Source: a virus
IMG/VR virus record: IMGVR_UViG_3300046170_000502
Coordinates: 64,001-128,000 of that record
Direction: 5' to 3' (one strand)
Length of the DNA: 64,000 nucleotides
A program made the translations under genes and the position numbers. The notes below the pieces were generated by a model. It made no database searches. It saw only the letters and a list, made by a program, of their open reading frames with translations, and had not been told where the DNA came from. The first letter of the stretch is position 1. Each line of letters opens with the position of its first letter. Positions 3 through 14,275 of the stretch are shown piece after piece.

Positions 3-512
3 AAAGAACCTCTAAAAGAAAAATCATCTGCAGACACAAAATTCAACAATAAAAAAGTAAAATCTGAGTTATTTCACATCTGGAAAAAAGCCAGGGTCAT
101 GTATGATATGATTAAAGATGACCAGGAATTGGAAACTTGGCAAAAAAACAATATCCGCGAGGCTCACGATTTGTTAAACGAAACAGCTACCTACACGGAG
201 TATCAGAAAATTTTTCCAACACAAAAAGAAGATGACCCCGATGAAAACAAAAATAACTTTTTATCAAATGAAGATAAAAGGTATCCCGTCCCTGTGGATC
301 AAGAAAACGGGGATCAGTTTATAACTAGATGTATATTGGACGCTAATATGAAAAACAGATATCCTGTTCAATCTGACAGATTTCAAGCTTGCATGACTAT
401 TTTTAACGAAAAAAAACAAATTACTCATTCAAATCCTGGAGAAAAGTTTGAAGACCCTATGAAAAAAAAGGAGGATGATGATATTAATCCAGTTAAGCCT
501 CTTCTTCCTTAA
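3..512 (+). CDS. Hypothetical phage protein, probably virion-associated; 5' end at the window edge
   Basis: The frame is open from base 3 (KEPLKEK...). Bases 1-2 'TG' suggest an ATG starting one base before the window. Motifs 'MIKDDQELETWQKNNI' and 'RYPVQSDRFQACM' resemble short modules recurrent in large-phage proteins. Confidence 0.5.
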   Translation, partial: KEPLKEKSSADTKFNNKKVKSELFHIWKKARVMYDMIKDDQELETWQKNNIREAHDLLNETATYTEYQKIFPTQKEDDPDENKNNFLSNEDKRYPVPVDQENGDQFITRCILDANMKNRYPVQSDRFQACMTIFNEKKQITHSNPGEKFEDPMKKKEDDDINPVKPLLP

Positions 513-2964
513 TATCGTACTCTATATTACCTCTCAGGTATTTAAATTTAATTAAGGACCCGTCTTGAAGGGTCTTGCTCAAAATTAATCTACTTAATTC
601 GTTTTCAATACTCTTTTGAAGAATTCTTTTTATCGGCCTTGCTCCCATTTTTTCTTTTATTGCTTGTTCAGATATATGTTTAACTAAAGAAGGGGTTGCG
701 GAAAACGAAATCCCTTTTTTGTGCAATTTGCAGGCAAGTTTTTTGAGCTCTAGCTTTGTTATTTTTGAAATTTGATCTAGCTCGAAATCGTTAAACAATA
801 TTATATCATTTAACCTATTCAGGAATTCTGGTCGAAAGAATAACTTTAGTTCAGCTTTTAGTTTATCATCAGCAATACTTTTTGCGTCATAATTACCAAA
901 CCCCATGTTAGGCTTCGCTGCTTTTTCGCTACCTATGTTGCCTGTTAATATTATTATACAATTTGTAAAATCAATCTTTCTTCCAGAGTTATCTGTCAAT
1001 ACCCCTTCTTCAAGAATTTGTAATAATATATTTAAAACTTCTGGGTGAGCTTTCTCTACTTCATCAAACAATATCACACTGTAGGGATTTCTTCGAACTT
1101 TTTCGGTAAGCTCTCCACCTTCTTCATACCCGACATAACCCGGGGCTGCTCCAGTTAATCTAGTTGATGAAATCTTTTCGGAAAATTCACTCATATCTAT
1201 TTGAATCAAAGATTTTTTAGAGCCGTATATAAATTCAGCGATACATTTAGCTGTATAAGTTTTACCCACGCCACTTGCACCAACCAATAAAAAACTTCCC
1301 ACTGGCTTACCTGAATCCTGTAGGCCGGATTTTGATCGCAGTATTGATTCTGATATCTCCTCTAAAGCTTCTTCTTGTCCAACAATCTTGTTCTTTAGAT
1401 TTTTTAATAATCCAAGCATTTTTTCGGATTCTTTTTTGGATATTTCAGAAAGGGGTATTCCTGTTCTAGAAGACATTACTTCATATATATCTTTTTTAGT
1501 TACAGGTATCTTTGATTTCATGGCTTTATTTGCCCAATCGGTAATTATTTGATCGTATTCTTCTAACAAATAAATTTGCTCATCTTCGATATCTGAACGC
1601 GATACGCCTATTATTTGAAGTTTAGATTCTTTCAAAGCTAGTTGCTCTAATTGATTTTCAATATCTTTGGCCTTCTGGGGACGTTCGATGTTTTTTATCT
1701 TTACTTTTGAACCTGCTTGATCCATAATATCTATAGCTTTATCTGGAAATTGTTTATCAAGAATATATTTTGATGAAAGGTCTACAATAAGATCTAAAAC
1801 TTCTTCTGGATAACAAATTGTATGAAATGATTCATATTTCGGCCTAATTCCATCCAGAATTTGCCTAGTTTCCTGCTTGTTTGGCTCTAAAACTTTTACT
1901 GATTGAAATCTTCTGTCGAGCGCACCATCTTTTAGTATACTTTTTTTGTATTCATCTTGAGTGGTGGCGCCGATACACTTCAACTCTCCTCTCGCCAGCA
2001 AAGGCTTTAACAGATTTGCAGCATCCATGCTTCCTTCGGCACTTCCTGCCCCAACTAAGGTATGAATTTCGTCGATAAATAATATTACATCTTTATTCTT
2101 TTTAGCTTCTTCTATAATCCCTTTTAATCTTTCTTCGAATTGCCCTCTATACTTTGTTCCAGCAATTAGAGACCCTAGATCAAGGGAGAATATCATTTTA
2201 CTGATTAAGAAGTCAGAACTTTCTCCCTTTACTATCTTATGAGCCAGGCCTTCAACGATTGCAGTTTTTCCAACACCGGGTTCCCCTAGAAGAACTGGGT
2301 TGTTTTTAGTTTTTCTGCATAAAATTTCGCACACTTGATATATTTCTTCTTCTTTGCCGATGATATTATCAAATTTTCCTTGCTGTGCTAGTACGTTTAA
2401 GTTTGTTGCAAATTTTTCTAGATTTGTTAATTTTTGCTCTTTAATTTTTGGTTTTTTTGTGAATGATTTAATTCTGTCTTGTTTTGGTATTTTATGCTCT
2501 TTTGATAAGTGCAAATACTCTCTAACTTCTGCTATGATATCTTCGCCAGTAGCGTTGAATGATTGAAAATATTTTGGTATATTCGATTCTTCATATTTTA
2601 ACAAGGCGAGAAGCATGTGTTCAAGGCCCACATATTCATGGCCAAGCTTTTCGCTAATAGAAGCAGAAACCTTTAATACGAGATGAAAGTGTTCATCGTA
2701 AATAGGTTCAAACGAATCTACTTCAAAAGCTTGGTTTTCTATCGAGTCGAAGTTAAAAAGGTGATGCTCTATTTCAGATTTTAGAGCTTGTTTGTCTATC
2801 TCTAATAAAAAAAGAATTTCACATAATATTCCGGCACTCAAGTTTACCATGCCGAAAAATAGGTGATCCAGGGTGATGATTTCATTTGCGTATTTTAATG
2901 CAGCCTTTTTTGCTTCGTTAATCGCTTGTTGCGCACGTGGCGTAAAGTTAGGTTTTGGAGTCAT
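493..2964 (-). CDS. clpC: ATP-dependent Clp protease/chaperone ATPase subunit (ClpC/ClpB family)
   Basis: Clp N-domain (NFTPRAQQ...EHMLLALL) and two AAA+ modules (GEPGVGKT, GASGVGKT; Walker B FIDE and LFDE). The length of about 823 aa fits ClpC. The start may be 2970 or 2964. Confidence 0.9.
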   Translation of the reverse strand: MTPKPNFTPRAQQAINEAKKAALKYANEIITLDHLFFGMVNLSAGILCEILFLLEIDKQALKSEIEHHLFNFDSIENQAFEVDSFEPIYDEHFHLVLKVSASISEKLGHEYVGLEHMLLALLKYEESNIPKYFQSFNATGEDIIAEVREYLHLSKEHKIPKQDRIKSFTKKPKIKEQKLTNLEKFATNLNVLAQQGKFDNIIGKEEEIYQVCEILCRKTKNNPVLLGEPGVGKTAIVEGLAHKIVKGESSDFLISKMIFSLDLGSLIAGTKYRGQFEERLKGIIEEAKKNKDVILFIDEIHTLVGAGSAEGSMDAANLLKPLLARGELKCIGATTQDEYKKSILKDGALDRRFQSVKVLEPNKQETRQILDGIRPKYESFHTICYPEEVLDLIVDLSSKYILDKQFPDKAIDIMDQAGSKVKIKNIERPQKAKDIENQLEQLALKESKLQIIGVSRSDIEDEQIYLLEEYDQIITDWANKAMKSKIPVTKKDIYEVMSSRTGIPLSEISKKESEKMLGLLKNLKNKIVGQEEALEEISESILRSKSGLQDSGKPVGSFLLVGASGVGKTYTAKCIAEFIYGSKKSLIQIDMSEFSEKISSTRLTGAAPGYVGYEEGGELTEKVRRNPYSVILFDEVEKAHPEVLNILLQILEEGVLTDNSGRKIDFTNCIIILTGNIGSEKAAKPNMGFGNYDAKSIADDKLKAELKLFFRPEFLNRLNDIILFNDFELDQISKITKLELKKLACKLHKKGISFSATPSLVKHISEQAIKEKMGARPIKRILQKSIENELSRLILSKTLQDGSLIKFKYLRGNIEYDIKEEEA

Positions 2965-2974
2965 TTTCATAAAT

Positions 2975-2985: not shown

Positions 2986-5544
2986 TTACTTTACTTCAGA
3001 CATTTTCATATATATTTTTTCATCCATAACCCTTATGGAATCCAGAAAAATAATATCCTCAGCCTTTCTTCCGTAAGCGACGACAATATTTTTCTTAGAG
3101 GGTGCTTTTTTATTTTGTTGAAAATATCTGTCATAAAAATTACCCCTTCTTGAGTTTAACAACATTGCACTGTATCTTCCGTTTTCGTCTGCGATTTGAA
3201 GTTTAATATATTTATTTCCGTTTCGAGAGGTTGCTTTTAGCGAATCTTCTATTACTCCTATAAACTTACCTTTTTCGTCCAAGTCCATTAATTCTAAGTC
3301 TGTCGAGTCCTTTAAATCTTTATACAAGTCTATGAAGCAACTTTTTAATTTCGAGCTATGACTATATCCTAGTAGTTCATTTTCAAAATACCAATTCGCA
3401 AAAGTTTCGTATTTTTTATTTTTATCATAAATTGACTTGTACAAGTCATATTTCTTCTTGAATGTCTTGAACCTTGACTCCTTCATTAGTGGTTTTCCAT
3501 CATCTCCTACCATAGACTGATTTTTTGCATCAGAAATACAGTTTAATAATTTATATTCATATTCTTCTCCAAGAAAGATAAAGTTTCTCTTTTCCCTTTC
3601 TGTTAGCAGGTTAAAAGCCTGCGCTTCGAGCGCCATAAGCGACCTATTTGAACCTTTGCTTTCTAGTGCGCCAGCTTGAATCAAAGAGGAAAGAACTCCT
3701 ATGTTAAGACCAGCCTGTTTTGCGGCCAAGAAGATGTCGTATTTTGTTGGGGTATCACTAGATCTAAAGTCCCTCAGTGATTCCAAAGATTTTTCGCTAA
3801 CCCCTTTTATGCTGTTTAAGCCAAAGCGGATGTTTTTTCCCTCTATCGAGAAGTCCATTTTTGATTTTGCTAAATCTGGAGATAGTAGCTTTATTCCGAA
3901 ATTAGCCAGCTCTTTTGACACGGAGGAAATTTCTTCCTGCGGGGCAGGCTCATATTTAGTCATCCTTAATAAAGAAAGGAAAAACTGCTGTGGGTGATTG
4001 AACTTAAGATAAGACGTCCACGCCGCTAATGTTGCATAAGCTAGTGAGTGTGATTTATTAAAAGAATAATTCGCACTGTCCTCCGCTACGCTCCATAAAA
4101 TATCTCCGACTTCCGTAGGAAGATCATTATCAATAATCTTCTGTTGAATCTTTGCTTGCCAAGCAGGCATCTGATCCACTTTTTTCTTCCCGACAATCCT
4201 CCTTAGTTGCTCCGATTCATCTAAAGTAAAACCAACTTTTACCGCCATTTGCATAAGTTGCTCTTGGTACAAAGGAATTCCTCCTGTATAGTCTAAAACG
4301 TCCCTGAAGAATTCATGAATTACTTGAGGCTCTTTTGTCTGCGAATAAGTGGCGTAATCACCCAAAAAATCTAGTGCCCCTGGCCTGCCAATAGCGATAA
4401 CCGCACTAAGCTCCTCAAGATCTTTCGGCTTAATCTTTTTGCAAACTCTGAAATTAGTGTCAGATTCGAGCTGGAATAATCCATGGGGCGAACGCAACGA
4501 CTGAAGTGGCTTGAATATACTTCCATTACTTAAGTCGAGGTCCGATATATCCTCATTAATGTTTTTACATACATCATAAATAACACTCAACGTTCTTAAT
4601 CCAAGGATATCAAACTTCACCATCAATTCTGAGACCCAATTCATATCATAGCCAGTTACTAATGCTCCGTCATTTGTTTTTTGAACGGGGCAAATATCAG
4701 TAATTTTTTGAAAAGAAATAGCTATTCCACTTGGGTGAACTCCTGTATTTTTATTTAAACCTTCAATCTTTAAGGCTATCTCAAAAACATCTGGATGTTC
4801 TGCGGCCCAATCCGCAAATTTTTCGCTTTCTACAATAGCAGTCGAGATGGGAACGACAACTCCAAACTTTTTTGGAATAGTTGAACTTACTAGATTTACG
4901 TCCTGTTCGGAAAGATCGCCTACGATTTTCCCGCATTCTTTTACGCATAATTTTCCACTCAGGGTATTTAATGTTAAAATTTTTGCAGTTCTAGAGGGGT
5001 GTTTTCTTTCGATATATTCAATAACCTCGATTCTTCTTTCGTAAGCGATATCATTATCTACATCAGCCAGAAGGCTTCCGTCGAGATAGGTTATTCCACC
5101 TTTTTCTATCTTTTTCGCTCTACTCTTAGATACAAACCTCTCAAAAAACAAATTATATTTAACAGGGTCTACATTTGTGACCCCGATTAAATAAAGAACC
5201 AGCGACCCTGCTGCAGACCCTCTACCTGGACCTGTTGGGATATCATTTTCATGGCAAAAATTAATAATGTCCCAATTCAAAAGAATATAATCAATGAAAC
5301 CTAGTTCATTTAATATTTTTAATTCTGATTTTGCACGATCAAAATAATCTTTTTTATTTTTAAATTTATCTATTCCTTTATCCTTCACCCCTTTGTGACA
5401 TAACTTACGAAGGAAGTCGTAATTAGATATAGTGTTATCTGCTTCAAGCACATCGTAATACTTTTGCTCGATTTCAATCTCAGGAAGTCTAACTCCTGGA
5501 GGGCAGCACTCTTTGTATTCTGTAAATTGATCTGTAAAACTCAT
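2986..5544 (-). CDS. dnaE: DNA polymerase III alpha subunit core (palm/fingers/HhH/OB), lacking the PHP domain
   Basis: Motifs GPGRGSAAGSLV, catalytic DVDND, KFDILGL, YQEQLM and SFNKSH, plus a C-terminal OB fold. The start at 5544 forms an ATGA overlap with the upstream exonuclease stop. Confidence 0.95.
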   Translation of the reverse strand: MSFTDQFTEYKECCPPGVRLPEIEIEQKYYDVLEADNTISNYDFLRKLCHKGVKDKGIDKFKNKKDYFDRAKSELKILNELGFIDYILLNWDIINFCHENDIPTGPGRGSAAGSLVLYLIGVTNVDPVKYNLFFERFVSKSRAKKIEKGGITYLDGSLLADVDNDIAYERRIEVIEYIERKHPSRTAKILTLNTLSGKLCVKECGKIVGDLSEQDVNLVSSTIPKKFGVVVPISTAIVESEKFADWAAEHPDVFEIALKIEGLNKNTGVHPSGIAISFQKITDICPVQKTNDGALVTGYDMNWVSELMVKFDILGLRTLSVIYDVCKNINEDISDLDLSNGSIFKPLQSLRSPHGLFQLESDTNFRVCKKIKPKDLEELSAVIAIGRPGALDFLGDYATYSQTKEPQVIHEFFRDVLDYTGGIPLYQEQLMQMAVKVGFTLDESEQLRRIVGKKKVDQMPAWQAKIQQKIIDNDLPTEVGDILWSVAEDSANYSFNKSHSLAYATLAAWTSYLKFNHPQQFFLSLLRMTKYEPAPQEEISSVSKELANFGIKLLSPDLAKSKMDFSIEGKNIRFGLNSIKGVSEKSLESLRDFRSSDTPTKYDIFLAAKQAGLNIGVLSSLIQAGALESKGSNRSLMALEAQAFNLLTEREKRNFIFLGEEYEYKLLNCISDAKNQSMVGDDGKPLMKESRFKTFKKKYDLYKSIYDKNKKYETFANWYFENELLGYSHSSKLKSCFIDLYKDLKDSTDLELMDLDEKGKFIGVIEDSLKATSRNGNKYIKLQIADENGRYSAMLLNSRRGNFYDRYFQQNKKAPSKKNIVVAYGRKAEDIIFLDSIRVMDEKIYMKMSEVK

Positions 5545-6188
5545 ATTTCTATTTCCCATAGCATTTTCTTGAAAACTTCATAATTAACCTTTATATCGTA
5601 TAATGCATCATGCAGTTTAGTTGCGTCAAAAGGAACATCAAAGTCCTTGCAACACTGCTTGAGATTGCAAGATAGACCCCGTTCAATCAAATGATTTAAT
5701 CTATATTGCCAGGCCAGGAAATTATCTTCCTTGTTTATTTTAATTCTTTTCTTTAGTGCTTTGGCCAGGCAAAGTGTGTCGACTAATTTCTCTGAATAAC
5801 TAAAGTCCGACTCAGCTTTAGGGTTAATTAGTTTTCTATGCAGGTTATGCATGTAAACATCAAATCCTAATAAATTGTGCCCAACCTTAATGTAAGTATC
5901 ATCATACAAATATTTCTCAAAATGATCTAGTGCTCCTTTTGGGTCTACTGCGTTTTTTTTGTATTTGGCCTGAGTAAATCCTGTAATTTTTGCAGCTTCT
6001 GGAGACACCTTAAGGTCGTCCCATTTTAACCAATAATCTTTTTCTTCGACAATTTTATCCCCTTCTATGACGAGGAATGCTAATTGCCATGGTTTATTTT
6101 CTCCAGAAATTAAATTAAGATTGCAGGTCTCATAATCAAAAAGTAAATATTTTTGTTTGTTTTTAAATCTAAGTAATGTTTCTTTCAT
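5541..6188 (-). CDS. DEDDh 3'-5' exonuclease (DnaQ/epsilon-like proofreader)
   Basis: Exo I FDYET, Exo II GHNLLGFD and Exo III LHDALYD motifs; lies between the PHP and dnaE core genes. Confidence 0.88.
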   Translation of the reverse strand: MKETLLRFKNKQKYLLFDYETCNLNLISGENKPWQLAFLVIEGDKIVEEKDYWLKWDDLKVSPEAAKITGFTQAKYKKNAVDPKGALDHFEKYLYDDTYIKVGHNLLGFDVYMHNLHRKLINPKAESDFSYSEKLVDTLCLAKALKKRIKINKEDNFLAWQYRLNHLIERGLSCNLKQCCKDFDVPFDATKLHDALYDIKVNYEVFKKMLWEIEI

Positions 6189-6200
6189 TTATTTATTTAT

Positions 6201-6959
6201 TTATTTATTTTCTTTCCAGCTTTCGAAACTAAATTCGCTACTACCGAAATGATCTAGGTTAGGTTTTGATAAGGTTTTATTACCGAAGCTGCGACTAGTA
6301 ATACATTTATATGTTTGTAGCGCGGATACATCATTCCTACTTTTGTAATAAATACTTTTTACGGATTCTACATTAGATTCATTCTCTTCTGCATATTTTA
6401 TAACCCTGGATCTTAATAGCAAGTCGAAGGGTAGGTTATTATTTTCTAGAAAAAATGTAGGCTTGGCAAACGAAAAATTAGGTGTGCAATTGCTGAATTT
6501 CATAGTATTATTGAATATAAACGAGTCGTAAAAAGGTATTGCTAGCGAAAGGTTCTTGTTGCTCCAGTGTTTTTTTAGTATTTTTTGATCTACCGCATTG
6601 AATGATTCAGAAAAAGCTTCGCTAGATATCGCATTAAGTAATGCGCAACCTTTTGAGTTTTTGGCGAAAATAACAATCTTATGCCTTGAACTATTAGATT
6701 CTTCTTTTGGATTAATCCTTGCATTTTCGCACATATCTAATCTCAAGCCAAAAATTAATTTTACTCCCATAGAATCCGAGACTTTTTTGGCTTGAAGGAA
6801 GCCTGTTAACGAATCTTCTACGAGAATGACTTCTTTAAGATTACTTTCTTTGACTATCGAAAAAACGCTATCAGATTTACCTTCTTTTTGTGACGAAGGA
6901 TCGTCCAGCGTTAGTATGCTTTTTCCTATTGAAAAATGACTTTTAAATAATGGTAACAT
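6201..6959 (-). CDS. Stand-alone PHP domain of DNA polymerase III alpha
   Basis: Resembles the DnaE N-terminus (LFKSHFSIGKSIL...ILVEDSLTGF...GVKLIFGLRL...IVIFAKN...YKCI). Metal-binding motifs look degenerate. Confidence 0.8.
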   Translation of the reverse strand: MLPLFKSHFSIGKSILTLDDPSSQKEGKSDSVFSIVKESNLKEVILVEDSLTGFLQAKKVSDSMGVKLIFGLRLDMCENARINPKEESNSSRHKIVIFAKNSKGCALLNAISSEAFSESFNAVDQKILKKHWSNKNLSLAIPFYDSFIFNNTMKFSNCTPNFSFAKPTFFLENNNLPFDLLLRSRVIKYAEENESNVESVKSIYYKSRNDVSALQTYKCITSRSFGNKTLSKPNLDHFGSSEFSFESWKENK

Positions 6960-6965
6960 GCGTAT

Positions 6966-6994
6966 ATTTTAGCATAAATAAATTACAATGTCAA
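6966..6994 (-). promoter_or_regulatory. Sigma70-type promoter, leaderless
   Basis: TTGACA-17 nt-TAAAAT with extended -10 TG; the ATG (6959) is 6 nt downstream. Confidence 0.8.
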
Positions 6995-7004
6995 GCGTAT
7001 AAAC

Positions 7005-7026
7005 AAAAAAGCCGCCCGAGGGCGGC
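7005..7026 (-). terminator. Rho-independent terminator after nrdB
   Basis: Minus strand reads GCCGCC-CTCG-GGCGGC followed by T6. Confidence 0.85.
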
Positions 7027-7048
7027 TGGCCATAACTAATAACCAAAA

Positions 7049-8062
7049 TCAAAAATCGTCGTCAAGCGAGCCGCTTTGTTGGTACTCCCGAACCCTTCTC
7101 TCGAAAAAGTTGCCCATTGCTTGAACATCTACAACTTCACCCAACCAAGGGAAGGGGTTTTTGTCACTCGGAAACCTATAGTCTAACCCTATAGCTTCTA
7201 GTCTCCTATTACCTATGTAATGCATATAGTCAACAAACATATCCGCATTAAGCCCTAAAATTCCTGTAGGTAAAACGTCGTGAGCATAAGCAATTTCAAG
7301 TTCTACTGCTTTTTTCATATGCTCTACAAATTCATCTTGCATTTTCTTGGTCCAAATAGAGGGCTCTTGTTCGATGATTGTATTAATAATATAAGTTCCG
7401 AAAGCTATATGTGAGCTCTCATCCCTCAATGTATACTTTATTTGGTCAGATATCCCTTGAAGTTTATTTTGCCTACCTAAGGCTAAGAGCATAGCGAACC
7501 CGCTAAAGAAAAAAGTACCTTCGCAAACAATCCAGTATGTTAAAAAATTTCTAAGTATTTCTTGTTTCCCTTCTTTTGTGTTTGCATTAAAATCTTGAGC
7601 GCTAATATCATTCGTAATCTGCATTAAGAAGTCGTCTTTAGCTTTGATACTTGGGATCGTTTCGTATGCAGCGAATACCTCTTCTATATCAAGGTCAAGG
7701 CTATCACAAATATAAACTACCGTAAGGTTGTGAAGGCTTTCTTCAAACGCTTGCCGCAGGATATACTGACGACATTCAGCATCCGTAACATAGCGAAAGG
7801 CAGATAACAAAAGATTATTACCAACCAAAGACTCAGATCCAGCAAAAAACCCAAGGCAGCGTTTAACAAGTAATTTTTCATCTTCTGTAATTTCATTATT
7901 TTTCCATTGTTTAATGTCGTTCTGCATGCTGATTTCTGTTGGCATCCAGTTATTTGCGCAACTTTTTAAAAATAAATCCCATGCGTATTTATGTTTATGT
8001 GGTAAAATTCTATTTACCCCCGCTATATCTTTAGTTAGTAATTTTCCTGTTTTATCTTCCAT
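7049..8062 (-). CDS. nrdB: Ribonucleotide reductase beta subunit (R2) with class Ic signatures
   Basis: Ferritin-like ligands FFAGSESLV, EESLH, CEG and RDESSH, with C-terminal FFERRVREY. The radical-Tyr position (H+4) is Val and the first ligand is Glu. Confidence 0.93.
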   Translation of the reverse strand: MEDKTGKLLTKDIAGVNRILPHKHKYAWDLFLKSCANNWMPTEISMQNDIKQWKNNEITEDEKLLVKRCLGFFAGSESLVGNNLLLSAFRYVTDAECRQYILRQAFEESLHNLTVVYICDSLDLDIEEVFAAYETIPSIKAKDDFLMQITNDISAQDFNANTKEGKQEILRNFLTYWIVCEGTFFFSGFAMLLALGRQNKLQGISDQIKYTLRDESSHIAFGTYIINTIIEQEPSIWTKKMQDEFVEHMKKAVELEIAYAHDVLPTGILGLNADMFVDYMHYIGNRRLEAIGLDYRFPSDKNPFPWLGEVVDVQAMGNFFERRVREYQQSGSLDDDF

Positions 8063-8068
8063 GTTTAT

Positions 8069-8097
8069 AGTATATCATTATAATATAACGAAGTCAA
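8069..8097 (-). promoter_or_regulatory. Sigma70-type promoter, leaderless
   Basis: TTGACT-17 nt-TATACT, 6 nt before the ATG at 8062. Confidence 0.8.
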
Positions 8098-8113
8098 TGT
8101 TAAAAAAGATCAG

Positions 8114-10573
8114 TTATTGACAACTTTCGCAAGTTTCTCCATTTTTCATAGCTTCAATACTGCATGCAGAGGCTTCCGTTTCGTTTTCTGAATCTCCTGT
8201 AGATTTTTCAACTTTTGATGCTGCCCTATTTCTTAAGTAATAAGTTGTTTTTAATCCAGCTTCCCAGCAAGCCATATACATATCGTTTAAATATTTTAAA
8301 GACGTTCCTTTATTGTATAAATTAAAACTTATAGCCTGATCAATCCATTTTTGCCTGACCGAATTGCATTCTATTAATTTAAACATATCTCTATCAAAAG
8401 CTGTTTTGTATTTTAATTTTATCCACTCGGGCACCTCACCATTTAATACTGATAAATCTCCATCAGCATCTTTAATTAATTTTGAGTTGTTTGGGTTCCA
8501 CAGCCCTTCTTTTTTCATATCATTTATAAAGTGTTGGTTGGTGATATAAAAATTACCGCTTTTGTTCTCATAAACAAAAAGAACAGAAAAATTAGGCTCA
8601 ATACTTTGCTCTACTCCATTAATATAACCTATCGTTGCAGTAGGAGCGATAGCCATGACATTTGAGTTTCTCATTCCAAATTCACCAACGTGAGTCCTGA
8701 TTTTTTCCCACTCATCAAAAGTTTGACCTTTGCCAGTAAGAGGCTTACCTGTAACGGACTGTTTAGGAGCTTTTTGTTTGCCCCTGTAAGCCATTAAGTT
8801 GTTGTAAGAATCAATTGGGAATACACCTTTGCTCCAGAGTGACCCTTCGTAAGTTTCGTATTGACCTCGCTCCGCAGCTAGTAATGAACTAGCATAAATT
8901 GCGTGCATAGAGTAAAACTCAAATAATTTATCATTAAACTTTGCAGCTTCGTCGCTATCTATATTTATATTAACTTTATGAAGAATATCGTGAAGAGCCA
9001 TCATGCCTAGACCAATAGGGCGATGTCTTAAATTACTGTTTTCCGCCTCTTTTGTGGGGTAAAAATTAAGATCTATAACGTTGTCTAGCGCTCTGATTGC
9101 TGTATGAATTGTTCGCTCTAATTTTACATAATCAAGATCGGTTTCATCTTCATTTATGTGGTTTAACAAGTTAACTGATCCAAGGTTACATACTGCGGTT
9201 TCTCCAATTTCTGTTTTATAACCCTTGTTGTATTTTGAAGCTTTTGTGTGAAGGGTAATTTCTGTGCATAAATTACTGCTATGTACAACCCCTTCGTGCT
9301 GGTTTGTATAGCGCATGTTACATGGGTCTTTAAATGTAGCCCATGGATGAGAAGTTTCAAACAAAACTTTTAACATTTTTTTCCATAACTCTTTTGCGGG
9401 AGTTATTCTATAGTTTTTAATTAACCCTTCCTCTGCTTGGCTACAAAGCTCATTATATTTTTCGTCGAACTCAACCCCAAAACAATCGTGTAAATCAGCT
9501 TCTGTTGGGTCAAAGAAGTACCAAACATCTTCGTTTTGTACTCTTCTCATGAATTCATCAGGAATCCAAGATGCCGTGTTCATATCGTGGCACCGTAACC
9601 TGTCGTCTCCAGTGTTTCTCCGAAGGTTTAAAAAGTCTTCAAAGTCTAAATGCCAAGGCTCTAAATACGCACAGCCTGCGCCTGGTCGTTTTCCTCCTTG
9701 ATTGACTGCAACAAGCAAGTCGTTGTAAATTTTTAACCAAGGAATTAAACCTCCAGAAATTCCATTTGTTCCCTTTATGTGAGAACCTGCAGATCTAAAT
9801 GGGGTTACATCAAAGCCAAGGCCTCCGGCATACTTGCTTTTTCTAGCTTCCTGCCAAGCTCCATCAAAAATTCCATCAATACTGTCGTCAAAAGTGTTTA
9901 AATAGCAAGAGCTTAATTGAGAATGTGTTGTTCCGCTATTAAATAAAGTCGGGGTAGAAGATGTATACAAAAACTGACTAAACATATCATAAAACTTAAT
10001 AGCCCACTCTTCTTTATTTTCTTCGTTAATTGCCAAACCCATCGCGACTCTCATCCAAAAGCATTGTGGGGCTTCCATTATTTTATCTTCATGTCTAATG
10101 AAATATCTATCGGTTAAAATTTGAATGCCTAAATATTTAAAAGATTGATCTCTCCTTATCTTTAAAGCTTCAGATAATTTATTAAGATCAAATTCAAGCA
10201 TTTTAGAGTTAAGCTTTTCTAGCTTTACTAATTTTTTTACATTTTGTATAAAGCTTTTTCTATATTGAAGCTTGAACGTGTCTGAATCGACCCCCTCTTT
10301 AAAGACTTCTTTATATACGGTATTCAAAAGCAATCTTGCAGCAACAAAGCTGTAGTTCGGTTCTTTTTCTATTTTTTCTCTAGCAGAAAGGATTAAAGCT
10401 GTATCTATTTCGCTAGTCGTTATCTTGTCGAATAGTTGGAGTTGTGCATCTAGTAAAACCTCACTGACTGAGGCGTCTTCGATTCCCTCACATGCTCGTT
10501 CTACATTTGCGTTTATTTTTTCTACCAAAAAAGGTTGGAGTCTACCGTTTCGTTTTTTTACGTTGATATTCAT
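8114..10573 (-). CDS. nrdA: Ribonucleoside-diphosphate reductase alpha subunit, class I, with N-terminal ATP cone
   Basis: VKKRNG ATP cone, STPTLFNSG, SSCY, SNLCTEI, VCNLGS, APTATI, KTTYYLR and a C-terminal CESC. Confidence 0.96.
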   Translation of the reverse strand: MNINVKKRNGRLQPFLVEKINANVERACEGIEDASVSEVLLDAQLQLFDKITTSEIDTALILSAREKIEKEPNYSFVAARLLLNTVYKEVFKEGVDSDTFKLQYRKSFIQNVKKLVKLEKLNSKMLEFDLNKLSEALKIRRDQSFKYLGIQILTDRYFIRHEDKIMEAPQCFWMRVAMGLAINEENKEEWAIKFYDMFSQFLYTSSTPTLFNSGTTHSQLSSCYLNTFDDSIDGIFDGAWQEARKSKYAGGLGFDVTPFRSAGSHIKGTNGISGGLIPWLKIYNDLLVAVNQGGKRPGAGCAYLEPWHLDFEDFLNLRRNTGDDRLRCHDMNTASWIPDEFMRRVQNEDVWYFFDPTEADLHDCFGVEFDEKYNELCSQAEEGLIKNYRITPAKELWKKMLKVLFETSHPWATFKDPCNMRYTNQHEGVVHSSNLCTEITLHTKASKYNKGYKTEIGETAVCNLGSVNLLNHINEDETDLDYVKLERTIHTAIRALDNVIDLNFYPTKEAENSNLRHRPIGLGMMALHDILHKVNINIDSDEAAKFNDKLFEFYSMHAIYASSLLAAERGQYETYEGSLWSKGVFPIDSYNNLMAYRGKQKAPKQSVTGKPLTGKGQTFDEWEKIRTHVGEFGMRNSNVMAIAPTATIGYINGVEQSIEPNFSVLFVYENKSGNFYITNQHFINDMKKEGLWNPNNSKLIKDADGDLSVLNGEVPEWIKLKYKTAFDRDMFKLIECNSVRQKWIDQAISFNLYNKGTSLKYLNDMYMACWEAGLKTTYYLRNRAASKVEKSTGDSENETEASACSIEAMKNGETCESCQ

Positions 10574-10585
10574 ATTGATGTTATT

Positions 10586-10614
10586 ATAATAGCATTTTAT
10601 TGACCAAGTGTCAA
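10586..10614 (-). promoter_or_regulatory. Sigma70-type promoter for nrdA
   Basis: TTGACA-17 nt-TATTAT with extended -10 TG; 12 nt to the ATG. Confidence 0.65.
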
Positions 10615-10677
10615 CGCAAAACCTCTTATGTCAATAACTTTTACTTAGCTCAAGAGAACTAGGTTACACCTATAATT

Positions 10678-11976
10678 TTAAGACAGTATGTCGAAAAGGG
10701 GAGTTCCTTTGTTCGCTACAGTAAAAGGTCTTCCAGATGGGGAATATTGTACATCATTCAACTTTAAACCCAATAAGTAGCCTATTGTTGCATTTAAATC
10801 CTCGGGCTTAATTGGCTTTCCCTCTTTAGGAGATCTACCTTGGTCGTCTGCCTCTCCGTAAGAAAAGCCTCCTTTAACCCCTCCTCCAGCCATAAATGCG
10901 GTAAAGCAATATGGCCAATGATCTCTTCCGTCTCTACCATTGATATTAGGAGTTCTCCCAAATTCAGAAGTTAATACGACCAAAGTTTCATTTAATAAAC
11001 CTCTCATTTCAAGGTCGATCAATAAAGCGCTCAAGGCTCCATCTATATCCGCACAATTTTCACCAACCCTATCGAAGTTATTATCATGGGTATCCCATCC
11101 ACCCCTGGTCACTTCTACATACCTCACTCCGTTTTCAACTAATCTTCTTGCGAGTAAGCACCCCTGTCCGAAATTCGAAGCGCCGTATTGTTTGTGTATA
11201 TTTTCTGGTTCTTTAGATATATCAAAAGCTTTTAAGTCTTGACTATTCATTAGCTTAATTGCGTCTTTGTATAAATCTGAATATGCTCTTATTTGTTTCT
11301 GAGGGAATTCTGTAGAGAAGTTTGTGTTCAACTTTTCTATCAAAGATATTCTTCCTTGAAAATGCTCTTTATCTAGATATCCCGCTAGTTTACTATTTGC
11401 AAGTCCTGACTTTGGGTTATTTATGGATAGTGGACCATATTTTGACTCAAGAAATCCAGCTCCCAGCCCTCCGCCACCAATTTTAATATTAGATGGAATT
11501 GTTTCGTTGATTGCTCCAGACAATTTAGATACCCAACTCCCAAAAGTGGGGTGAACTATAGTACCCCTTTTTAAGTAGCTCGTATGCATTAGGTAGCTAG
11601 CTTGCTCATGCGCTCCTTGGCTCGTTACCATTGTCTTGATTATTGATGCCTGATGCATTAATTGTGCAGTTTTAGGTAAATGCTCAGAAAGTAATATTCC
11701 GTCGGCGCTGGTAGCGATAGATTTAGTTGGCCCTTGAATATCAGGGCAATCAGGTTTAGTTCCAAAAGTATCTAAATGAGACATAGCTCCTGCCATGTTG
11801 AGATAAATCACATGCCTTGCAGAAGCTAATCTAGCCCCCACTTCAAGAGCTTGAGCATTGTTATGTATATAGGCTCCAGCCATAGGCATCAACCCAACGC
11901 CAAAACACGCCTTTGCCGCGTGTGCGATAAATTCTCTTCTTCCTAATTCATCTATATTATTAAAATTTGTTTTCAT
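10678..11976 (-). CDS. DUF1501 family protein (sulfatase/alkaline-phosphatase-like fold) with a Tat signal
   Basis: RREFI twin-arginine motif; GAMSHLDTF, FGQGCLLARRLVENGVRYVEV, GWDTH and EFGRTP..N...GRDHWP. Confidence 0.9.
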   Translation of the reverse strand: MKTNFNNIDELGRREFIAHAAKACFGVGLMPMAGAYIHNNAQALEVGARLASARHVIYLNMAGAMSHLDTFGTKPDCPDIQGPTKSIATSADGILLSEHLPKTAQLMHQASIIKTMVTSQGAHEQASYLMHTSYLKRGTIVHPTFGSWVSKLSGAINETIPSNIKIGGGGLGAGFLESKYGPLSINNPKSGLANSKLAGYLDKEHFQGRISLIEKLNTNFSTEFPQKQIRAYSDLYKDAIKLMNSQDLKAFDISKEPENIHKQYGASNFGQGCLLARRLVENGVRYVEVTRGGWDTHDNNFDRVGENCADIDGALSALLIDLEMRGLLNETLVVLTSEFGRTPNINGRDGRDHWPYCFTAFMAGGGVKGGFSYGEADDQGRSPKEGKPIKPEDLNATIGYLLGLKLNDVQYSPSGRPFTVANKGTPLFDILS

Positions 11977-11992
11977 ATATTTTTTCCTTTTA

Positions 11993-14239
11993 TTATTTTA
12001 TAAAGATGTATTCATGCGAATTTACTAAAGCCCATATTATTTCTTTATATATATCTTTTTTGTTTATTAGTGCGTCTTTGAATAATTTTAACTCTGCTAT
12101 AGAGGGTTTTCTATTTAAAATAGATTTAAAACCGACTTTTATTTTATCATCTAATGTTTTTTGTTCTTTTATTAATTTTACTATCTCTGAGTTTTTATTG
12201 TTTATAACTTTTGTTTCAATAAAACCATTAATTAAATTAAGAACTTGTGTTGTTGATGGGTCTGTATTTGAGTTTTCAATTTGTTCACGATCTGAGCCTC
12301 CAAATTCTCTAACTATATGACCTACGGGAGCTGGAGAACTTAATTCTGATGCTCGAACGGAGTTTCTATCTTTTACGAAATTATTCTTATCTTGCTGTTT
12401 TTTCTGAGAATTAAATTTTTCTACGCAAGACTTACAGCAGAACGCAAGAGTTTCTCCGTTTTCGTTTAGCGCTAATAAAGTTGGGTCAATAGCTCGACCA
12501 GGTTTGATTGGGCAGTCTATATTAATTGGGTTTCCAAATTTTTGATTGGTCTTGGGTTTTTGCGTTTTATTTATTCGAGACAATAATTCTTCAAGCAGCC
12601 CTTCTCCTGTCATGCTAGAAAACCTCTCAAAATCCTGATAGCCTGAATTTTTTGGCTGAAGTCTTCGAGAGTCTATATCCTTAAAATTCAAAGAGACTAA
12701 TGAATCCCACAGTTGCTCGCCACTCATCCTTTGCAAAATGGGGCCCTGATAGAAAAACGGAACTGCATTGAAAGATTGTTTTTCAACATTTGGTCCAGCA
12801 ATCACCCATTCAACGCCCACTGGCATAACAGTATCTTTTTCGTCTCTAGGTACAATATCTCTAGAAACAGATTGTCTTTGAAAGGTTTTTGTGTTGTAAA
12901 GTATTCTTAAGAACTCCTTTATGTCAAAATTTAATGCAACCATAACTTTTTCTAAATGAAGCTGTAATACTGGATCTGTTGCCATAGTCTCGTCAAACAT
13001 ATTATCTATTGGCTCAATTAGAGCTAACCCAAAAACCTCTTTCCATAATCTATTAACAATGACAGATGTAAATCTTGGGTTTTTTTCTGACGCCAACCAG
13101 TTTGCGTATAGCTCTCTTGAGCCAGTACCTTTGGCAAGTTCTATTTCTCGACCAAAAAGAGTTTTTCCTAAAAGGGATTCGTTTGGTTTTGCGTTGTCGT
13201 ATTGATAATCTTTAGGTAAATTGATTTTACCTGACCCTGGCTGATCTAGCCCCGCTTGCAATATATCTTGTATTGACCTTGAAGCATTTCTAACTTGAGG
13301 TACTTTTTGAGGCTCCCCAGCTTCCTCCAACCTTTTCTGTTCTTCTCTGACTAGTTTATTGAATTGGTTGAGATTGTCAACCCCTTTTCTTCTAAGATTT
13401 GTAGAACCACTGGTAAACGCAGCCATCTCATAAAATTCTTTTTGTGTCCATCTATCAAATGGATGATCGTGGCATTGCGCGCATTCTAAACTTGTGCCAA
13501 GGAAGATTCGGACGGTGTTAGCCATATTATCTAAAGGCATACCTGCATCTCTTGCAAAATAACCTACCCCTTCACTGCCTTTCTTCCATATAGGACCAGA
13601 AGAAGAGAGCATTTCTCTTACCCATTTATCATATGGTCTATTTTCAGATATAAATTGTTTGACATAATTTTTATATGGAATTCCTGATATTCTATTAGTT
13701 AATCTATCTTTTAATCTTAATATATCTGCCCAAAAGTTAAACCAATGACTATTGTATCCCTCGCTAGCTAATAAATCGTCTATGAGTTTTGTTCTTTTAT
13801 TCTTGTCTCTATTTTCGATAAAGCTATTCACTTCCTTGTAAGAAGGTGTTCTGCCTATTATTTTTAGATACGCTCTTCTAGAAAACGAAGAATCATTAAT
13901 TTCTTTATTAGGTCTTTGATTATAAGATCTTAATTTATTTTCGATTAGTTGATCTATGTACCTTGAATTTTTAATTAAATCTTGATCGGATAATGGTTTT
14001 TTAAATTTTGGTAAATTTTCGTGACCTGGGGCGAAGTTATTTTTCACATAAGCTTGATTGTCTTTTGTTAATAGTTTAAGAGGTATTCTAAAAAGTTGGA
14101 AGTCATCTTCTCTTTTGACAACAACATGCGTGCTGTTAGATTCTATTATTTCCCCTCTAATATTATTTCCATCATTAAAATATAAAACATCTCCAGAACA
14201 AAATAAAGATGATAAAATTAATAAAAATAAGTGTTTCAT
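11993..14239 (-). CDS. DUF1549/DUF1553 (PSCyt2/PSD1) exported cytochrome-c-motif protein
   Basis: Hydrophobic N-terminal signal; RRAYLKIIGRTP, CAQCHDHPFD (CxxCH), NPRFTSVIVNRLWK and WALVNSHEYIF. The ATG at 14239 is preferred over the GTG at 14275. Confidence 0.9.
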   Translation of the reverse strand: MKHLFLLILSSLFCSGDVLYFNDGNNIRGEIIESNSTHVVVKREDDFQLFRIPLKLLTKDNQAYVKNNFAPGHENLPKFKKPLSDQDLIKNSRYIDQLIENKLRSYNQRPNKEINDSSFSRRAYLKIIGRTPSYKEVNSFIENRDKNKRTKLIDDLLASEGYNSHWFNFWADILRLKDRLTNRISGIPYKNYVKQFISENRPYDKWVREMLSSSGPIWKKGSEGVGYFARDAGMPLDNMANTVRIFLGTSLECAQCHDHPFDRWTQKEFYEMAAFTSGSTNLRRKGVDNLNQFNKLVREEQKRLEEAGEPQKVPQVRNASRSIQDILQAGLDQPGSGKINLPKDYQYDNAKPNESLLGKTLFGREIELAKGTGSRELYANWLASEKNPRFTSVIVNRLWKEVFGLALIEPIDNMFDETMATDPVLQLHLEKVMVALNFDIKEFLRILYNTKTFQRQSVSRDIVPRDEKDTVMPVGVEWVIAGPNVEKQSFNAVPFFYQGPILQRMSGEQLWDSLVSLNFKDIDSRRLQPKNSGYQDFERFSSMTGEGLLEELLSRINKTQKPKTNQKFGNPINIDCPIKPGRAIDPTLLALNENGETLAFCCKSCVEKFNSQKKQQDKNNFVKDRNSVRASELSSPAPVGHIVREFGGSDREQIENSNTDPSTTQVLNLINGFIETKVINNKNSEIVKLIKEQKTLDDKIKVGFKSILNRKPSIAELKLFKDALINKKDIYKEIIWALVNSHEYIFIK

Positions 14240-14268
14240 GATAAATAGTAAATAAAAGTAAGGATATT

Positions 14269-14273
14269 TACAC
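14269..14273 (-). promoter_or_regulatory. GTGTA motif directly after a terminator, upstream of the DUF1549 gene
   Basis: TGTGTGTAAAT follows the U-tract; 29 nt to the ATG. Confidence 0.45.
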
Positions 14274-14275
14274 AC

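Follow-up and report, generated by a model that had tools for sequence, protein, structure and literature searches.

The type of ribonucleotide reductase (RNR) that a phage encodes sets the metal and oxygen needs of its DNA synthesis, and the small subunit gene at 7049-8062 of the window (the whole 64,000-nucleotide stretch of viral DNA analysed here) raises the question of how an RNR would hold its oxidant when a valine occupies the position of the radical tyrosine. The minus-strand ORF is intact and, according to the ORF list and its translation, encodes an NrdB of 337 aa, which matches the Pfam family Ribonuc_red_sm (PF00268) from end to end (2.1e-76). The original prediction had assigned this protein to class Ic on the basis of two strings, EESLHNLTVVYIC and FFAGSESLVGNN, both of which are found in the translation. 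The gene and the residues that bear on the question are as follows, with the equivalents in Chlamydia trachomatis (Ct) R2 and the basis of each entry in brackets.

7049..8062, minus strand: nrdB, class I RNR small (beta) subunit of the Val/Ile, 'Ic-like' type, 337 aa (PF00268, PDB match, AlphaFold2 model)
7946..7948, minus strand: Trp39 (= Ct Trp51), electron-transfer tryptophan (invariant column)
7832..7834, minus strand: Glu77, codon GAG, first metal ligand (Ct Glu89; Asp in class Ia) (alignment, codon check)
7730..7741, minus strand: E108-x-x-H111 metal-binding motif of helix C, His111 at 7730-7732 (invariant alignment columns, codons checked)
7727..7729, minus strand: Asn112 (His111+1), specific to the Val/Ile clade, elsewhere Thr or Ser (clade comparison)
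7718..7720, minus strand: Val115, codon GTA, radical-Tyr position (= Ct Phe127), His111+4 (1SYY alignment, codon check)
7523..7525, minus strand: Cys180 (Glu181-1), specific to the Val/Ile clade, elsewhere Met, Phe or Leu (clade comparison)
7520..7522, minus strand: Glu181, bridging metal ligand (Ct Glu193) (alignment, codon check)
7508-7510, minus strand: Phe185 (= Ct Phe197, described in PMC4118035) (alignment, codon check)
7430..7435, minus strand: Tyr210 (= Ct Tyr222) followed by Thr211 (Glu215-4; Ile elsewhere) (alignment, clade comparison, codon check)
7409..7420, minus strand: E215-x-x-H218 metal-binding motif of helix F (invariant alignment columns, codons checked)
7082..7084, minus strand: Tyr327 (= Ct Tyr338), C-terminal inter-subunit radical-transfer tyrosine, in a tail that ends DDF (alignment, codon check)

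Using phmmer against all PDB chains, we found that the class Ic R2 of C. trachomatis gives the top matches (1SYY, 2ANI and 4D8F, E 2.9e-112), followed by 6Y2N (2.3e-106), after which the values drop to 7e-36 and, for E. coli R2, to about 1e-14. The alignment of NrdB with 1SYY is ungapped across the ligand helices at 51% identity. All six metal ligands are kept, as confirmed at the codons, in the NrdB/Ct pairs Glu77/Glu89, Glu108/Glu120, His111/His123, Glu181/Glu193, Glu215/Glu227 and His218/His230, and the further pairs are Val115/Phe127, Trp39/Trp51, Tyr210/Tyr222, Phe185/Phe197, Tyr327/Tyr338 and Tyr117/Tyr129. As originally predicted, the first ligand is Glu instead of Asp (GAG at 7832-7834, on Ct Glu89) and the residue four after His111 is Val (GTA at 7718-7720, on Ct Phe127); both sequence hallmarks of class Ic, the Glu ligand and a Tyr site occupied by a redox-inert residue, are present. 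Following the numbering of that prediction, we take the Val115 position to be that of E. coli Tyr122.

The comparison of structures gives the same picture. In 2ANI, the F127Y mutant, the Tyr falls in the Val115 column. An AlphaFold2 model of NrdB, made with a 36-sequence alignment as input (pLDDT 87.7, pTM 0.86), was superposed best by Foldseek on the C. trachomatis Mn/Fe NrdB 4M1I, with a TM score of 0.89, an rmsd of 1.3 Å and 51% identity. Neither this superposition nor the 1SYY alignment places a Tyr at the radical site, the nearest being Tyr117, two residues past Val115 and equal to Ct Tyr129, and the closeness of both fits rules out a misalignment that hides one. None of the solved structures among the PDB matches from phmmer and Foldseek carries Val or Ile at the radical site. 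The identity to Ct R2c (51%) is barely above that to Asp/Tyr class Ia NrdBz proteins (48-50%); class Ia (NrdBza) was rejected as an assignment because it needs an Asp first ligand and a radical Tyr, where NrdB has Glu77 and Val115.

To see how general the signature is, relatives were collected from two sources. The scan of IMG/VR returned 193 close relatives from Tara and JGI marine sources, and residues were counted in the best 80 of these, which are 90-98% identical and many of which lie on 180-206 kb contigs. The first ligand is Glu in 80/80, and the Tyr site is Val in 74 and Ile in six. Because all 80 keep Glu together with Val or Ile, the signature is not a matter of chance or of a sequencing error, and with the ORF intact a pseudogene was rejected as well. 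The scan of GTDB, with a five-sequence alignment as query, yielded 80 species-representative loci, in which the two sites covary without exception: Asp/Tyr in 52, Glu/Phe in 20 and Glu/Val-or-Ile in eight, so that Asp is always accompanied by Tyr, and Glu always by Phe, Val or Ile. The same pairing is seen across 150 representatives of 50%-identity clusters. Judged from these alignments, the Glu + Val/Ile signature is kept by selection.

Such conservation bears on a reading in which the centre is diiron, weakly active or helped by a host factor, and Val is a tolerated loss of the radical tyrosine. Fe/Fe centres do assemble in Ct R2c in vitro, but only the mixed cofactor makes that enzyme highly active (PMC4118035). 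Furthermore, the strict Glu + Val/Ile pattern across hundreds of viral sequences, and its occurrence as the sole RNR in cellular MAGs, argues for an efficient enzyme, and we regard a diiron centre as improbable.

By its gene content, the window is DNA of a large uncultured marine phage. It encodes a tail sheath, tail-fibre proteins with Peptidase_S74 chaperone domains, a UvsX-like recombinase, a DnaB-like helicase and a C-family polymerase; a bacterial origin was rejected in view of the tail sheath, the tail fibres, the recombinase and the 193 IMG/VR relatives. One relative, IMGVR_UViG_3300033273_000833 (203,067 bp, CheckV-complete), carries one NrdB and one NrdA, and a search of this complete genome found neither NrdD nor NrdI nor glutaredoxin. 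Classes Ie and Ib, which pair an NrdF-type beta with an NrdI activase, were rejected, since all carboxylates are present in NrdB (Ie lacks three of them) and no NrdI was found in the complete relative. The gene order differs between the two phages: nrdA, nrdB and the DUF1501 gene lie at 28.5, 45.7 and 107 kb in the relative and are contiguous in the window (6000-12000), and nrdA adjoins nrdB in only about two thirds of the relatives' loci (n = 80). The DUF1501 gene of the window stands with a PSCyt2/PSD1 (DUF1549/DUF1553) gene beside nrdAB (10678-14275, minus strand), a pair typical of Planctomycetes and Verrucomicrobia; it occurs near nrdAB in more than 30 of the 80 IMG/VR relatives, with order and orientation changing from one to another.

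In the window, nrdB starts 52 bases downstream of the gene for the large subunit.

8114..10573, minus strand: nrdA, class I RNR large (alpha) subunit, NrdAz-like, 819 aa, one ATP-cone (PF03477, PF00317, PF02867)

Pfam assigns to this protein one ATP-cone, the all-alpha domain and the barrel domain, and its best PDB match is the P. aeruginosa NrdA 5IM3 (1.2e-237). It has the motif NLCTE at 434, two adjacent tyrosines (YY) at 778-779 and CESCQ at its C-terminus. We propose that NrdB would serve as the functional beta subunit of an aerobic class I RNR that the phage itself encodes, paired with the adjacent nrdA product. Tyr-less R2 homologues that are not catalytic RNR subunits are known in two kinds, beta-prime partners and R2lox-type oxidases (PMC3824934), but it is very improbable that NrdB belongs to either. 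It keeps the six ligands and the C-terminal Tyr327, a Tyr that R2lox lacks (PMC3824934), and R2lox structures match it at only about 1e-9 to 1e-8 (phmmer, PDB). R2lox is further marked by a ligand channel and by having no coupling to nrdA. In addition, nrdB lies directly downstream of nrdA and is the sole R2 in the complete relative genome.

The residue at the radical position of NrdB is aliphatic and not oxidisable, and the rest of the transfer route is kept, comprising Trp39, Tyr210 and Tyr327 in beta and the YY pair and catalytic Cys motif in alpha. In Ct R2c, Tyr222 and Trp51 form the electron relay for cofactor assembly (PMC4118035). The reading that we favour, as reasonably likely, is that a metal-centred oxidant, probably Mn(IV)/Fe(III), replaces the tyrosyl radical; the choice of Mn(IV)/Fe(III) is made because it is the cofactor of the nearest characterised enzyme, C. 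trachomatis R2c. The oxidising equivalent would be stored on the dimetal centre, with Mn most probably in site 1 as in C. trachomatis, and on binding of alpha the oxidant would pass to Tyr327, then to the alpha YY pair and finally to the catalytic cysteine. For R2c, a site-1 Mn(IV) oxidant and a reduced susceptibility to radical scavengers such as NO have been described, together with the idea of an adaptation to iron limitation (PMC4118035, PMC8463856). A Mn/Fe cofactor would require half the iron and present no scavengeable tyrosyl radical, and this would suit a phage with a genome of about 200 kb in the iron-poor ocean. If the enzyme is indeed Mn/Fe or iron-free, it would represent a widespread viral route to replicating large genomes in such waters, and the sequence definition of class Ic would widen beyond Phe and Leu.

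Metal specificity is not readable from sequence (PMC4118035). For the surroundings of the centre, 12 distinct Val/Ile lineages were set against 34 Glu/Phe-or-Leu and 79 Asp/Tyr sequences. Asn112, Cys180 and Thr211 are among the residues that are fixed in the Val/Ile clade and seldom occur outside it, and the C-terminal DDF end is also common to the clade. At positions 77/112/115/180/211, the best 80 IMG/VR relatives all read E-N-V/I-C-T; the Glu/Phe enzymes read E-S/T-F-M/F/L-I and the Asp/Tyr enzymes D-T-Y-M/F-I. In E. coli R2, Tyr122 is shielded by three hydrophobic residues, Phe208, Phe212 and Ile234, and by ligand register Thr211 presumably corresponds to Ile234. We infer that the changes extend beyond the Tyr itself and have reshaped the radical pocket as a whole. 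No description of the Asn112/Cys180/Thr211 and DDF signature was found in the literature consulted. Several metagenomic Val-type R2 proteins, among them P0123, P0128 and P0147 (about 650 aa), break off between RDE and C, and an intein therefore appears to sit directly after the ligand Glu215, inside the ExxH motif.

The clade-specific Cys180 lies beside the ligand Glu181, and Tyr117 and Tyr210 are conserved, which might suggest that the oxidant is stored on one of these three side chains and not on the metals. However, Tyr117 and Tyr210 are equally kept in Ct R2c (Tyr129 and Tyr222) and in Asp/Tyr enzymes, where they are not radical sites, and Cys180 is replaced by Thr in two Val-type lineages. 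We know of no precedent for a stable thiyl radical in R2, and storage on a side chain is quite improbable.

Since the clade combines Asn112, Cys180 and Thr211 with a long stem in the tree, its metal choice could differ from that of C. trachomatis, and NrdB may be a Tyr-less R2 of a new subclass with another metal-centred oxidant, e.g. Mn2(IV,III) as in class Id, or some other combination. Class Id is a precedent for a Mn-only metal-centred oxidant (PMC6754362), and a recent preprint keeps the 'Ic-like' group apart from Ic (PMC12918982). We nevertheless consider such an oxidant unlikely, as class Id, a group of NrdBi homologues, is distant (6CWO gives a partial match at 4e-9, against 2.9e-112 for Ct R2c) and retains a Tyr near its Mn2 site, lost in NrdB, and a conserved Lys pointing at the metals (PMC6754362, PMC8463856). 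The primary ligand set of NrdB, moreover, is identical to that of Ct R2c. The residue four after Glu77 is a conserved Gly81, and we take the metal-facing Lys of class Id to stand in this register, Glu+4 in the F. johnsoniae numbering. Mn(IV)/Fe(III) stays the preferred assignment.

The origin of the clade was addressed with a maximum-likelihood tree of 45 rows and 329 columns, from which both trait columns were omitted (LG+C20+F+G4, ultrafast bootstrap and SH-aLRT); C. trachomatis and E. coli R2 are not among the rows. The Val/Ile sequences fall together in a single clade with 100/100 support, its stem measuring 0.72 changes per site, and within it a subclade of Alphaproteobacteria and Deinococcota MAGs is sister to the subclade that holds the phages. 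The clade first joins a metagenomic Glu/Leu lineage (95/86), at a point where the program warns of long branches meeting, next the Glu/Phe enzymes of Planctomycetota and Ca. Kuenenia (85/72), and then the Asp/Tyr enzymes of Planctomycetia and Omnitrophota (100/100). A second Glu/Phe group (Bradyrhizobium, Pelagibacterium and others) is placed elsewhere. Forcing all Tyr-less sequences into one clade, a group named after seeing the tree, costs 50.9 log-likelihood units and is rejected (AU p 0.007). On the tree and the AU test, the Ic sequence signature is thus not monophyletic inside NrdBz, in agreement with earlier work cited in a passage of PMC3824934.

The same tree gives moderate support to a PVC-related origin of the Val/Ile clade, with the proviso that C. 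trachomatis itself is not in it. The original prediction of a PVC-lineage origin holds to the extent that the clade falls in a 100/100 group with Planctomycetota and Omnitrophota MAG enzymes; it does not extend to the nearest cellular relatives, which are Alphaproteobacteria and Deinococcota MAGs at 57-61% identity to the window NrdB. Two of the MAG loci have cellular-type neighbours by Pfam, YceI in one (L087) and carbonic anhydrase with a SulP permease in the other (L089), and in both MAGs, which are possibly incomplete, no RNR other than the Glu/Ile NrdAB was found. The clade also takes in a second phage group that looks unrelated to the first; it lies on JGI metagenome contigs of 34-53 kb (L164-L166) and has a Glu/Ile R2 at 55% identity. 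As placed by tree and alignment, the Val/Ile clade is a separate long-stem lineage with second-sphere changes of its own and no plain copy of the Chlamydia enzyme. With low confidence, we put forward the broader view that this clade is a biochemically distinct class I subclass, in which Val/Ile115, Asn112, Cys180 and Thr211 would adjust an oxidant centred on the metals that departs from the Mn(IV)/Fe(III) of C. trachomatis in its metals, in the way it is assembled or in its redox gating. On this view, the clade would have passed from a cellular ancestor of PVC-related descent to the abundant marine phages of 200 kb as a low-iron adaptation.

Further observations were made on these loci. Two GTDB contigs encode the NrdB of the window phage, JAYQMT010000004.1 (210,818 bp, filed under Cellvibrionales) at 93% identity and NZCP01000046.1 (filed under Candidatus Woesebacteria) at 89%; both are probably mis-binned phage contigs, the former about the length of a whole genome. 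The second phage group carries an intein-loaded NrdA (1570 aa) and terminase (1592 aa), and also ThyA, two DHFR genes, an RNA ligase and an AEP primase.

The lineage would represent a distinct Val/Ile type inside the NrdAz/NrdBz radiation, corresponding to a marine viral clade already named. A bioRxiv preprint of February 2026 (PMC12918982) reported 'a novel RNR clade' of 269 alpha sequences in GOV 2.0, named 'subclass Ic-like', in which alpha is nearest to NrdAz and beta has Ile or Val in place of the Tyr. It accounts for about 1.4% of the RNR-carrying GOV 2.0 populations with a peak near 60 degrees S, is anti-correlated with modelled iron, has a distribution that fits no single-metal pattern, and all its members are biochemically uncharacterised (PMC12918982). 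The window shares all three traits, the NrdAz-nearest alpha, the Val/Ile beta and the occurrence on marine viral contigs, and has no demonstrable difference from this clade. The sequence observation is therefore already in the literature, and the Val/Ile lineage is common in ocean viruses. What our analysis adds to the preprint is the Glu first ligand, the Asn112/Cys180/Thr211 signature, the cellular carriers, the second phage group and a beta-subunit tree. The preprint accepts only Phe or Leu at the class Ic Tyr site (PMC12918982); passages elsewhere are broader, one in PMC3824934 crediting Hogbom 2010 with documenting Leu, Ile and Val in R2c and one in PMC6370689 giving 'Phe, Leu or Val' as the NrdBzc criterion after Lundin 2009. 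Val as a hydrophobic replacement in class Ic, as originally proposed, agrees with both. As a well-defined and easily expressed protein, the Val/Ile NrdB offers a target for RNR biochemists.

Four known groups of R2 resemble the window protein in part. The class Ic R2 of C. trachomatis (1SYY, 4D8F and 4M1I) and the 6Y2N R2 have the Glu ligand, no Tyr, the identical ligand set and the equivalents Trp51, Tyr222, Phe197 and Tyr338. Compared with Ct R2c, NrdB has Val for Phe at the radical site and Asn, Cys and Thr for Thr, Met and Ile at 112, 180 and 211, a tail ending DDF, a partner alpha with one ATP-cone and a place in a separate long-stem clade. The NrdB of Planctomycetota and Ca. Kuenenia (GTDB loci L092-L106) belongs to the same 100/100 tree group and is likewise Glu-type and Tyr-less at 47-50% identity, but has Phe at the site and Ile at 211 and is cellular. 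The class Ia NrdBz enzymes (P. aeruginosa type; Nitrosomonas and Burkholderiales; P. putida jumbo phages) belong to the same NrdAz/NrdBz radiation at 42-50% identity, whereas their Asp and Tyr are the hallmarks of a diiron-tyrosyl enzyme. Finally, the R2 of the Cyano SP clade (P-SSP7), reported in 2019, is also phage-encoded and without a radical Tyr, but is set apart by its description in PMC6370689, having another ligand pattern and branching away from NrdBz.

Such a Tyr-less RNR had been predicted to be unusual among phages, and this is true of cultured phages only. No close cultured-phage DNA relatives were found by megablast, and the nearest cultured-phage NrdB proteins by tblastn against INPHARED are Asp/Tyr types at 42-45% identity, from P. 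putida jumbo phages with vB_PpuM- names. The sole Glu/Phe case among the top INPHARED matches is that of the Aquificae Joseph's Coat Spring virus (BK013346.1, 2944-3855), at 32% identity. In marine viromes, by contrast, the type is represented by the 193 IMG/VR relatives and the 269 GOV 2.0 sequences.

In the hot-spring virus, the 3 kb to each side of the R2 gene contain no annotated nrdA. Another INPHARED record, CAKLQH020000007.1 ('Acinetobacter phage MD-2021a'), has LysR, PhzF-family and HcpC-like genes around nrdAB, and its NrdB is of the Asp/Tyr type and carries a long extension at the N-terminus; the record resembles bacterial chromosome. In the window itself, the C-family DNA polymerase (2986-6959, minus strand) is split over three genes, which encode a weak stand-alone PHP domain of 252 aa, a DEDD exonuclease of 215 aa and a PHP-less Pol III alpha core of 857 aa, and a full-length ClpB/ClpC-like double-AAA+ unfoldase of 825 aa is encoded at 493-2970 (minus strand).
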